The translations under genes and the position numbers were made by a program. The notes beneath the pieces were generated by a model. The model was not told where the DNA came from. It did not search any database and worked only from the letters and a program-made list of their open reading frames with translations. A stretch of DNA of 63,613 bases, the filler included, from Reclinomonas americana ATCC 50394 (taxonomy: Eukaryota), in assembly GCA_048213135.1 (NCBI GenBank). It is 22 parts of 22 records of this genome, joined end to end, with 100 filler letters (N's around TTAATTAATTAA, not from the genome) between each part and the next. Parts side by side here need not be neighbours in the genome. Positions count along the whole stretch, not along the records: positions 6,015 to 13,548 come from AFZH01018560.1; 21 more parts are not named here. One strand, given 5' to 3'. Below are positions 6,019-13,548 of this stretch, piece after piece (the stretch's first letter is position 1; every line of letters begins with the position of its first letter).

Positions 6019-9000
6019 GCGAAGCTTCGGCTCGATGATAGTGCACTGGGTGATAGTGCATATAACAGCGCCAGCCAGGAGGTGAGGGTGTGATAGACAT
6101 GAGTGAGTGTCTGTCTCCCTCTGAAATCGGATTGCTCAAACAACAACGGTCACGCGCAGGTGTTGCGATTCGCGCAGAGCGATGGTGGCAACAGCACCCG
6201 CATTCTTCTCGTGGAGGGTCCGCGGGGGAGTGGCAAGACTTCTTTACTGCGCGAGTGCGCCTCGACATTGGCGCAGTATGTGCTGGACGGCACCGACTAT
6301 ATGCTGCCACTGTACGTCAACTTGACTGACACACTGCTGCACCGCGAGTCGGCAAGTTACGACTTGGTGGTGCACCTGGTGCAGCAGTTGCATCCTGGAA
6401 TTTCTGAGCTCGGCTTGATCCAAGTTCTTCGACATATGCGCATTGCTCTGTTCATTGACGGACTGGATAGCAGTGCTGCATATCAGCTTCAAGCCCCGCT
6501 GGTTGACCGCTTTCAGGTTCGTCTGACGCCGTGCATGCTTGCGCCCGGCCTCTCTGGCCTCACGAACCATTCTTTGCAGCTCGCCCACTACCACAACTTG
6601 CGCTTGATCATTGCGACGCGGCATGAGGTCCTCCAGCTCATGCATGTCAGCGGCGAACGTGTCGCGTACACGCGTTTGCTGGCGCCCTTCGACCTGGCGA
6701 GCAACTCGTACCAGCCGCAAAACATCCAAGTGCAACACCTTTTGCCGCCATCACTGCCCTCGATTGAGGCCTACCTTGGCGAGGAGCTGTACCAGGCGGC
6801 CGTGAAACGGCATGACGTGCATCTGCTGCGCTCGCTCTCCATCTTGCACCTGCTGCGACTGCTGGGTCCGTTGTGCGTCGCGCACCTCTCATCCGTGGAA
6901 TTGTTGCGAATGTGGCTGCTCTACTGCTCGGCCACGGAACCATCCGACCGTCTTGCACTTGGTTTGCGCTGTGTGCAGCGACTGGCGAGAGGATATAGAG
7001 CGCAAGGCGTGGTTTGCGGCGACCTTGGCGTGGTCGACCTGTTGATTGCTCACGGTGACGATGTTGATGACGAACCTGATGAGGCGGAGACGGAGGTCGA
7101 GCTCACCACCCTCGACGGCTTGCGCTTGGCGGTCATGCACATGCCCCTCCTGTCAAATCTGGTGGATACTCATGGCCAGGCGCTGCCTCAATGGGGCTTC
7201 CCTTCTCTCCATTGCGTGGAAATGGCCGCGGACCCGCTTCTCTGTGCGGATTTCAATAGGCAAGTCCGCGCTACCACTGCCGTCATCTTGTTTGGTGATC
7301 TGATTCTGGGTGGTGTACGCACATGCTTTCAGAGACCTCGTGTCGCTGGAGCATCAGCGCAGTCAGGATGCCGCCAGTTGGTACCTCATGTCACGGTTTG
7401 TTTCGCAACTGGCCGTTCATGCGTATGAAATTTGCTGACTAGAGCATCTTGTGCCTTGGTCGCAGGGGCTCGGCTGAGATTGTTACCTTGCGCGCGGCCT
7501 TGAATGCAGGACTGCGACCGGCGCTGGTTGCACTCCTGCGCAAGGAGATGCGCCGCTTCAAAGCAGCTGTGCAAGAACGCTGTGCTTCCACCGGCGAGCC
7601 AGACTTTGATGCGCGGAAAGCATGTTTCCTTGGTGGTGTGTGTGTAGACACTTTCAACGCGAAAGCACTTGATACAGCAACAAAGACTGCAATTGAGCGC
7701 GCGGAAGCCGAAGGAGTTTCTTTTCCCCTTGTGGAGCAAGTTGACCTCGATGCGTGGAGGTTCGCGTATGGAATTGGTGTGAGTGTCTCTTGTGCTCGCT
7801 GCGCTGACTTGCAGGTGATGCAGATATTGCTGGTATTCTCCAGGCAGCCAAGCTAAGCGCGGAAAACCGCCACGCGAGAGTTTCCTTGGCAACTGCGCCT
7901 CAGCGACTGCCTGTCGCACTCTCTGCTGTTTGTACGAGAACCCAGACGATGAGGACACTGTGGTGTCGTTCGACTCGGGCAAGATTATCAGCATCTTGGA
8001 ATTCGTAGCATACCGGTGCAGCATCAACCCTGCCGATGTCGCTGCTGCGGAGGTGTGGTCGCTGTCAACAGCACTGCCCCCTGACCGAGCGAAAGTTTTT
8101 TGGGATGCCGAAAACAGCAAGGATCGATACGCCATTCCGCTGTGCGACGACCGCGGGTTGTTGGTTGCGTTTCCGTTCCTCTGTTCTCTTTGCTGTCCCT
8201 GCGTAGGTTGTCTCACGTTGTTTGCTCGCAACAGGAGCTGCTGAAAAGAATCCGCGCTGTGAAGAACGACGTGGTCCACCGCGGAGCTGCTGGAACAGAG
8301 GAGGCCGTGTTTGCTCAGGCTATTGCTGAAATGCGGCTGGCGATGGACGCTGTCACTCGCCGACTTCGCGATGTGTACAACATGTCGGAGTCCATGTGTG
8401 CGGCTCTGCAGATTGACTTTGATACGCTCAGTGTGCCAGGTGTGTGAATATTTGGCGTTTGCATGTCAAGGGTGCATCTGTTGACCTGACCATCCTTGCA
8501 GCCGGTGGCGATGGTATGGAGGTGGTCGACGATCGCGCCACGTTGCTACGATCAGTCGCCACTCAGTGCGCCATGTACGAAGCGTTTGTGCCGTCGATTG
8601 TCGTCCCGCTCGACTGCACCCCGCAGCCGAATACGTCGGCAGTCAAACCGCAACCGGTACAGCAACAGGTGTGTGAAGAAAGAGTATTCCCTGGTGCTTG
8701 TCCCTGTCGCAGCGAACTCACTCGTTAACCAGATTCTCGACTTTTGTGCAACGCGACGTATCGGTGCAGGCGCAACACAGGTCGTGTTTGTGGTGGGACC
8801 CGTCGGCAGCGGCAAGACCTGCGCCATGGTGGATCTCGCGCTGAACTACAGCGCAGCCGCAGTCAACAGCACGGTGCAACCACTGCCTCTCCTCATCAAT
8901 CTGGCCGGCGTGCGTATCAAGCATCTCCGCGACCTCACTGTCGAAGGCCTTGTGCGCCTGTGGTTCCAGCAGCTTTCGGTGTCGACCATGGCCACTGCCA

Positions 9001-12000: not shown

Positions 12001-13548
12001 CAATGCCGCTTGCCGCCGTGGCCATCTCCGATGACCCGCTGGTGGCCGCCGCTCCCGACATGCACAGCACCGTGTCCGTGTGGAATGCAGATGATGGCGC
12101 GGGCGCTGTCGCCGCGCCTCCTCGACTCCAACTGCGACATCCTCACGCCGAGCGTGTGCGCGACGAGGAGGCACCACAACGCGTGCTCACGGCAACCGCG
12201 CTGCAGTTCTGCAAGCTGTCGCTGCCGCACTGCATTCATCACGCTGCCGCTGCATCGACGCACCTGCTGGCTGGCTACTCTGACGGCACCGTCCTTTTGC
12301 ACTCGCTGACGCAGGCTCCAGCCGCAGCAGCACCTGAGGAAGTGGAAGAAGCGGCGCCTCTGGTGGTAATTGGCCCCGAGCCCGTCATCGACGAGGACCA
12401 AGCCAACCCATCGCCAGTCCTCATGGTGGCGTGCTGGCCTCTGGCGGAGTCTCCGGCACAGAGCGCTGTCGTGTGGGTGTGTCGCAGCGGGATGGTGAAG
12501 GCGTGTGTGGTGAACACGGCGCTGCCGGAGGCGCCGGAGGTGTGCCGGTTTGACGTTGACCAGACTGTGCGATCTCAGCGTGTGCCGTTGCTGGAGACGC
12601 AGGCGGAAACGATGACCTGTGCCGTTGCTGATGCCGGTGAATCGGGTGGTGCTGTGGTGCGCATACTTTGCGGTACCAGCGAGGGCCGCGTTATCTTGGT
12701 GCAAATGCAGTTTGTGATGGGTGGCGACGACGGCATTATGATTGTGCCGGATGTATCGGAGAGGTGTGCGCACGTCAGCTCGGACTATGTGACCACTGCA
12801 AAGGTTTGGAGGTTGTTGTGTGTAGAAGAGTTGGCGATGTGTCTCATGGGTGAGTTGCAGGCGGCCAGCGTGGACACAGCGGCTGGCGTTCGCGTCTGCA
12901 GCCTGTCGTTGCTTCGATCCGGTCTTGCATTTGTGGCGTGTGCAGACGGCACGCTACGTTACGTGGACGCGTCGTCGCTGACACTGCCTCTTGCTGTCGA
13001 CGATCGACCTGCCGTGTCGATTGTCTCACGCATGACCGACGATTTGCCGGTCACGGCAGTCGCCGCGATGCACACTGGCGACGATCACACGTCAGTGTGC
13101 ACCGTCGACGCCGAGTGCTCTGTTCGATTCTGGACCTGCAGCAGGTATGCGCGCTTGCCAAGTAACCGCCTTTCGTGGTGGTGCTGACTTGCAGCGTGCA
13201 GGTACGATCCACCAAATGTAACGTGCACGCTCGATGTGGTGTGCGGTCAGCGTCCACTGCACATCACACGCGTCGACTGCGAAGCGCCGACTGTCGACGA
13301 CGATTCGCTGCTCGTGTTGCGACAAATGGAGGCTGTGGAGCGCGATTCGCGAGAGCGAGCGGCCGCGCGGCGAGAGATGCACCGCGAGTTTGAGCAGGTG
13401 GTCAGCGCCATTCGCCACATGCAGCGACTCGCCGACGACTTGGTGGCGCAGACGCAAGAAGTGCAGCGACCGCAGGACTTTCTCTTTGAGCTGATTGTGC
13501 ACGTCCTCACTCTGGCACTGAATGCGCCGCCACCGCCGCTGCCCGGTC
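6019..13548 (+). CDS. NLR-like STAND protein: NACHT-like NTPase, HEPN-like region, second NACHT-like NTPase, pentapeptide repeats, WD40 repeats (multi-exon, partial)
   Basis: Walker A GPRGSGKT (6217-6240) with Walker B IALFIDGLD. Second Walker A GPVGSGKT (8796-8819) with LLLMLDGLH. Then NAATILCHAGVSFSGLDLRSAHLAYADLTN|VVMHGTLLDGANMTGARLHGAFIDGASL, then WD40 (GHRAPVRCLVFSHDSKFLASGGDDLSILVW). In-phase introns link the segments, including a GC-AG intron at 7260-7332. Confidence 0.85.

Follow-up and report, generated by a model that had tools for sequence, protein, structure and literature searches.

Receptors of the NLR (NOD-like receptor) and STAND type normally carry a single nucleotide-binding switch, and sensor and helper NLRs that act as a pair are usually encoded by separate genes. 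A 7.5-kb contig of the protist Reclinomonas americana raises the question of whether one gene can place two such switches, a NACHT NTPase and a diverged NACHT-like NTPase, ahead of a single repeat-type sensor. The contig occupies positions 6015-13548 of the window, by which we mean the whole 63.6-kb stretch of DNA that was analysed; this consists of 22 contigs (~1.2-7.5 kb each) strung together with 21 artificial N44-TTAATTAATTAA-N44 linkers, which span positions 1970-60731 and include those at 5915-6014 and 13549-13648 on either side of the contig. Most genes in the window are cut, and because the contigs are joined by artificial linkers the neighbouring sequence is uninformative as to gene context. 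The contig contains an intron-containing, protist-type eukaryotic NLR-like gene on the plus strand, in which two STAND-type P-loop modules precede a pentapeptide-WD40 region. On balance we read the contig as the middle of one large spliced gene predicted to encode an NLR-like STAND protein of ~2298 residues, and the gene is real and probably intact, with both ends missing. The motifs, the order of domains, the splice signals and the coding character of the DNA between the modules are all shown by the sequence. NACHT module 1 comes first, with a helical and weakly ankyrin-like region and a linker of ~300 residues with a weakly HEPN-like segment after it; the divergent NACHT-like module 2 is then followed by a helical domain, by pentapeptide repeats (~11 of them), by a WD40 propeller region that is degenerate, and by a coiled-coil-like tail.

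Both nucleotide-binding modules can be located by their motifs. NACHT domains have a Walker A motif of the form GxxxxGK[ST], a Walker B motif of the form hhhhDGhDE, and an arginine in the next strand. Module 1 has the Walker A motif GPRGSGKT (6217-6240), the Walker B motif FIDGLDS (6448-6471), with serine in place of the last acidic residue, and the sensor-1 strand LRLIIATRHE (6598-6627); it matches Pfam NACHT (PF05729) at 34.8-37.1 bits, above the gathering cut-off of 26.7 bits. Module 2 has the Walker A motif GPVGSGKT (8796-8819), the Walker B motif LLMLDGLHV (9033-9059) and the sensor-1 strand TNVVVCVRSE (9191-9220), and an intron interrupts it after Walker B. In that Walker B (LDGLHV) the first aspartate is retained and the acidic pair after it is lacking, whereas Walker A and the arginine strand are present. 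The remainder of the module lies in the exon at 9164-10339, which also contains a GFSDSAIHFFIERF motif (9299-9340), and the GFS..F..RF motif of module 2 is one that we take to be NACHT-type. The P-loop regions of the two modules share 36% amino acid identity over 47 residues (BLASTP E 2e-7), and in the spliced model the modules are 28% identical across 113 residues. We thus recover both Walker A/B sets, the arginine-bearing strand after each, and both of the Walker B deviations (DGLDS and DGLHV) described in the sequence-only reading of this locus. Its description of both modules as NACHT-type NTPases holds at Pfam grade for module 1; module 2, whose best Pfam families are STAND-type and which falls below threshold, is better described as a predicted NACHT-like STAND NTPase, an assignment made from the order of its motifs and its likeness to module 1.

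Downstream of module 2 the domain order is NTPase, pentapeptide repeats and WD40 repeats, and the junction recognised in that reading is present, with NAATIL at 10250-10267 and AGVSFSGLDL at 10274-10303 followed by repeats that have Pfam matches to both families. The pentapeptide repeats begin at the end of the exon at 9164-10339, beyond a long helical region (repeat start 10274-10339), and resume in register (..VVMHGTLLDGANMTGARLHGAFIDGASL..) past a 73-nucleotide intron (10340-10412) that splits them, continuing to ~10511. The Pfam Pentapeptide score from 10413 is 20.4 bits against a cut-off of 20.2, and the preceding exon ends in a weak match. The pentapeptide-WD40 exon (10413-13144; 910 codons) matches Pfam WD40 at 60.4 and 51.4 bits, and has one canonical repeat, starting at 11493. 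A first WD-repeat pattern caught one unit only, and was replaced by a profile of 109 repeat units from eight database proteins, which finds six repeats; at least six are thus recognisable. The 106 database matches of this exon cover 5-52% of the query and are generic WD40 and STAND proteins; a phmmer comparison of the spliced modules with these 106 proteins gave a single P-loop match, for module 1. A NACHT profile constructed from those matches flagged by PF05729 was dropped, as the P-loop is of NB-ARC type in four of these seven proteins and the Pfam table gives no positions for their NTPases. The last exon in the contig (13202-13548), which follows a 57-nucleotide intron (13145-13201), encodes a charged, helical and coiled-coil-like segment.

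The two P-loops are ~600 residues apart, and the region between them has two types of weak signal. Ankyrin repeats have a 33-residue periodic motif of the type G-x-TPLH..G..vv..LL..GA. Residues 284-354 of the first long exon have weak matches to DARPins (designed ankyrins; E 0.03-1), and a loose ankyrin-core pattern run on a 2277-residue draft of the model matches at just two places (7018-7065 and 7409-7511); the latter core, LAVHA|GSAEIVTLRAALNAG, is assembled only across the splice 7422|7466. Pfam reports no ANK domain in the exons scanned. The exon at 8235-8438/8439 has weak matches to HEPN families, all of them below cut-off (HEPN_Cthe2314, E 0.16; DUF4145, E 0.07-0.27). In the sequence IRAVKNDVVH (8250-8279) the HEPN motif Rx4-6H is not strictly present, since it reads as either K-x4-H or R-x7-H; we note that a lysine stands where the catalytic arginine is expected. 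DUF4145 is a HEPN family, and fusions in which a HEPN domain lies N-terminal to a STAND NTPase are known (PMC3710099). Taken together, these ankyrin-like and HEPN-like leads suggest two NLR-type units in series.

The exon-intron structure is what ties these parts together. Stop-to-stop open reading frames on the plus strand change frame repeatedly (pieces along the contig are in frames 1, 2, 3, 2, 1, 3, 2, 3, 2, 3 and 3), and at the switches there are short introns with clear signals. The earlier description of in-phase introns in one frame is accordingly incorrect: the exons switch frame, most of the 11 introns (38-78 nucleotides) have lengths that are not multiples of three, and the reading frame is continuous only once they are spliced out. 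In the preferred 12-exon model, which has 2298 codons and no stops, a partial exon at 6016-6081 (ending ..NSASQE; donor GTGAGG at 6082, acceptor at 6159) is followed by the exon at 6160-7294 containing module 1, a helical part and the ankyrin-like motif at 7018-7065. Two linker exons (7335-7422 and 7466-7776) flank a 43-nucleotide intron (7423-7465) with a GTATGA donor, a CTGAC branch-like motif and a TCGCAG acceptor. Next are linker exons at 7815-7832 (or 7815-7879), 7904-8163 (or 7939-8163) and 8235-8439, the last of these containing the HEPN-like segment, and then one at 8502-8672 (..GGDGMEVVDD..PQPVQQQ) between introns of 62 (8440-8501) and 40 nucleotides (8673-8712). A donor at 8669 for this second intron was rejected as it gives the wrong frame; that at 8673 fits. 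The P-loop half of module 2 is in the exon at 8713-9098 (preferred donor GTTGCGT at 9099, alternative at 9069), and the exons at 9164-10339, 10413-13144 and 13202-13548 complete the model.

At their donor sites the introns read GTGTGTGAA, GTGAGTGTCT or GTATG; they end in a YCAG acceptor, and many have a branch motif resembling CTGAC. A second donor type, GTTGCGT, is present in 23 copies in the window where 9.35 +/- 3.01 are expected, and none of 100 shuffles reaches 23; within the contig all three copies (8164, 9099 and 10340, plus strand) are at sites where a donor is needed, and in the correct phase. Both the pentapeptide repeats and the ankyrin-like motif run on across splice junctions, one each.

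All of the DNA between the modules is coding-like or intron-like. Each exon was scored per frame against codon usage learned from the three long exons only; in the inter-module exons the proper frame scores above zero and the other two below it, save for 7545-7775. Scores are high at 7906-8163 (26.2, versus -27.7 and -25.9 out of frame), 8235-8438 (22.3) and 8504-8671 (21.0, versus -12.4 and -7.3), and lower for the linker exons within 7335-7776 (9.4, 6.4 and 4.9); the middle value is that of the 26 codons (7467-7544) before the first possible ATG, which score -16.4 and -12.0 in the other frames. The upstream exon at 6016-6081 scores 5.8 (versus -8.0 and -22.7) and the last exon 53.6 (versus -40.1 and -48.3), and none of 30 intron-frame scores exceeds 4.9. 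The best coding path through the contig scores 123.7 bits on the plus strand; the reverse complement reaches 39.0, and none of 30 dinucleotide shuffles exceeds 13.1. Dynamic programming on codon scores, with no splice motifs supplied, recovered the introns 8164-8234 and 8673-8712. Long minus-strand open reading frames are without family matches at E <= 0.01, apart from one to DUF5994 that lies below threshold.

The gene is open at both contig ends, with its first exon running to the 6015 side and its last to 13548. There is no usable ATG upstream of the P-loop in the exon with module 1, and as the upstream exon at 6016-6081 is open from the contig start the start of the gene must lie outside the contig; of the limits proposed previously (6160-13548), the end coincides with the contig end and the start misses this upstream exon. 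Since the gene is cut at both ends, its N-terminal domain, which in NLRs is usually the effector, and its C-terminus are outside the fragment.

We consider it somewhat better than an even chance that both modules belong to a single gene and transcript, and a number of points have to be set against this. No sequencing run was listed for the contig, and the two halves are linked by DNA sequence and not by RNA. Nor were homologues found against which the exons or the pairing of modules could be checked: a search of 1.84 billion representative proteins with the exon at 9164-10339 gave no hits at E <= 0.001, word-indexed searches against longer proteins gave no homologues for this exon or for 6160-7259, and outside the WD40 part no similarity to any database protein was detected in these searches. 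AlphaFold2 single-sequence models are unusable, with mean pLDDT (predicted local distance difference test) values of 38.2 for 6160-7257 and 42.2 for 9164-10339. A stop-free spliced path can be threaded through all 30 dinucleotide shuffles, so that stop-free threading alone is weak evidence, and it is the coding score that sets the real sequence apart. The path found from codon scores alone chose different boundaries at four places, and the exon at 7545-7775 is the weakest (4.9 in frame versus 1.2 in one other frame). Four junctions are ambiguous, near 7244-7334, 7833-7938, 8142-8234 and 9069/9099. At the first, the exon with module 1 may end at 7243, 7259, 7289 or 7294, and alternatives combine donor 7260, 7290 or 7295 with acceptor 7332 or 7334; the others are introns 7833-7903 or 7880-7938, introns 8164-8234 or 8142-8206, and donor 9069 or 9099. 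All 24 boundary combinations that were built are stop-free, in part because only frame-preserving options were retained. The first junction has no clean donor, and can be bridged by a GC-AG intron (73 nucleotides), a GTTTGG donor (43 nucleotides), or a GTGATC donor with a second AG (40 nucleotides); the GC-AG candidate (7260-7332) is not preferred, as its consensus AGGCAAGT is not enriched in the window (one copy versus 2.28 expected). A chimeric join may also have arisen in so fragmented an assembly. Finally, module 2 falls short of the Pfam NACHT cut-off of 26.7 bits when its P-loop exon is scored alone, reaching 20.7 bits with the 9069-9098 extension and 19.6 bits without it, and as module 1 cut at the same point, at Walker B, still scores 35.7 bits, the shortfall is real divergence and not a matter of truncation.

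This last point opens the question of whether module 2 belongs to some other STAND or AAA-type family, in which case the protein would join a NACHT to an NTPase-WD40 protein of another kind. The three best Pfam families of its P-loop exon are all STAND-type and below cut-off, and AAA_16 (23.4-25.5 bits) is slightly ahead of nSTAND_NTPase5 (20.9 bits) and NACHT; PADLOC and NCBIfam give generic P-loop-level matches only, single-exon searches of PDB sequences return only designed repeat proteins and generic P-loops, and a two-row profile of both P-loop regions finds generic P-loops there too, with the NAIP NACHT only at E 0.14. However, the best significant match of module 2 anywhere is to module 1, itself a Pfam-grade NACHT, and the motif order, the arginine strand and the GFS..F..RF motif are, as we read them, those of NACHT proteins. 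Its pentapeptide-WD40 tail is typical of NACHT proteins (PMC11291939), and ESM Atlas feature neighbours of the next exon (9164-10339) fall in NTPase, NACHT and NCH2 clusters (0.83-0.91), although these are a lead only. That module 2 belongs to a non-NACHT family seems to us quite unlikely. The arrangement could instead comprise two adjacent NLR-type genes on the same strand, which we judge unlikely. Gene A would then encode an unseen head, NACHT1 and a short ankyrin-like tail and end at the TGA at 7436-7438 with 7423-7465 left unspliced, and gene B would start at the ATG at 7548 and encode a complete classical NLR layout of the form (HEPN-like)-NACHT2-pentapeptide-WD40; a first gene has only this stop open to it, within the predicted 43-nucleotide intron, and the exons at 7815-8163 are devoid of ATG codons, which makes 7548 the latest possible start of a second gene. 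The succession of weak sensor-end signals (ankyrin-like) and effector-start signals (HEPN) speaks for two genes, as do the known placement of HEPN domains and the lack of an RNA link noted above. But the spacer would be only 109 nucleotides long and hold a complete intron-like unit (GTATGA, CTGAC, TCGCAG), the 26 codons preceding the ATG score as coding in frame, the ankyrin-like motif is formed only across 7422|7466, and nothing between the modules resembles the presumably non-coding CT-rich DNA at 13649-15400. We regard as more doubtful still a non-working arrangement, in the form of a decaying pseudogene or fusion relic or of two paralogous NLR-like loci wrongly joined during assembly. The assembly is highly fragmented, with 22 contigs making up the 63.6 kb, the junction at 7244-7334 is bridged only by the weak or unusual donors described above, and a 1-nucleotide indel near 7297-7300 would account equally well for the change of frame there; yet the ~2298 codons are free of stops, with single exons running uninterrupted for 910 and 392 codons, codon bias is retained in every exon, and the halves show no shared repeat that might have led the assembler to join them in error. 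A single spliced gene therefore remains the reading we prefer.

The CT-rich stretch (13649-15400) is long and of low complexity (LSLSLS...), and has no coding signal on either strand (coding paths of 1.4 and -8.8 bits); it may typify non-coding DNA of this genome and may explain the assembly break there. WD40-type repeats are also present in other contigs, at 15653-15892 (+), 39819-40541 (-), 59709-59915 (+) and 60925-61131 (+); these match the canonical repeat of the gene in tblastn at E 2e-8 to 6e-4, and may represent further repeat-sensor genes.

Families with the NACHT-pentapeptide-WD40 layout presumably have a single NTPase per protein, a pattern from which the two modules of the single-gene model depart. 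The junction had been likened to families of ciliates, Mortierella and its endobacterium Mycoavidus, and indeed the same architecture, NACHT-PPR-WD40, is published for Mortierellomycota and Mycoavidus (PMC11291939), but no sequence relatives were found in the searches above, and the likeness seen is one of domain order. The C-terminal half here and the NOD-like receptors of those organisms have the same order of a NACHT-like NTPase, a helical region, a short pentapeptide spacer and WD40 repeats; the Reclinomonas gene differs in its upstream NACHT module, predicted to be in the same reading frame and transcript, in its ~11 spliceosomal introns, and in a strongly degenerate WD40 region with one canonical repeat. 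Fungal proteins of the HET-E/NWD type (NACHT-WD40 and NACHT-ANK; P0079, P0098) also combine a NACHT with WD40 or ankyrin repeats, and the similarity to them is in the WD40 part; they have a single NTPase, no pentapeptide spacer and highly regular repeats, whereas the repeats here are degenerate. Literature full-text searches found no paper on tandem NACHT domains in one protein, although supplementary survey tables could list some; matches for tandem or dual NACHT were only between-protein NACHT-NACHT contacts, gene counts, or papers on ABC transporters. A term search of a survey of Sordariales NLRs (PMC12258605) found no mention of two nucleotide-binding domains.

Two ATPase modules in tandem ahead of a repeat sensor thus appear to be an unusual build, yet one with precedent in wheat. 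The wheat proteins WTN1 (bioRxiv 10.1101/2024.08.30.610185) and Sr62-NLR (bioRxiv 10.1101/2024.08.30.610287) each have tandem NB-ARC domains in one NLR, and serve a separate sensor as its helpers or executors. The likeness is in architecture only, with two STAND nucleotide-binding domains ahead of a repeat domain in one predicted polypeptide; in the wheat proteins the domains are NB-ARC followed by LRR and are close together, whereas here they are NACHT-type followed by pentapeptide-WD40 and ~600 residues apart, with possible ankyrin-like and HEPN-like segments between them. No exon has a Pfam match to NB-ARC or LRR. The candidate HEPN segment directly upstream of STAND module 2 recalls the CXorf38- and DZIP3-type (animal) and bacterial HEPN-STAND proteins (PMC3710099); it differs in that the signal is below all thresholds, the Rx4-6H motif is not strict, and the segment is internal and not N-terminal.

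Walker B motifs that lack the acidic pair are associated in P-loop NTPases with nucleotide binding and little hydrolysis. If the protein works as other NLR/STAND switches do, its WD40 region would keep module 2 closed until a ligand binds, after which nucleotide exchange would drive oligomerisation. Module 2 (DGLHV) probably binds ATP and would hardly hydrolyse it, its Walker B being without an acidic pair; module 1 (DGLDS), which keeps one acidic residue, could act in cis as a hydrolysing or co-oligomerising partner. Such a gene would most likely have originated by duplication, or by fusion of two neighbouring NLR-type units. We may go one step further by analogy and imagine two complete NLR units fused, a head-NACHT1-ankyrin-like unit and a HEPN-like-NACHT2-pentapeptide-WD40 unit, in which a hydrolysis-competent NACHT1 and a degenerate, sensor-coupled NACHT2 would act as a sensor/helper pair within one protein, with an effector enclosed between them. 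We hold this elaboration to be improbable, but if true the fused units would be the counterpart in cis of plant paired NLRs, and no tandem-NACHT receptor would have been described before them. The value of the locus is limited for now, as it is a fragment, has no detectable relatives, and is read from DNA alone. Nonetheless, two NACHT-type switches in cis, one of them with a degenerate Walker B, would make a compact system in which to consider the cooperation of switches during oligomerisation, and would extend the tandem nucleotide-binding domain design from the NB-ARC NLRs of wheat to the NACHT clade and to protists.

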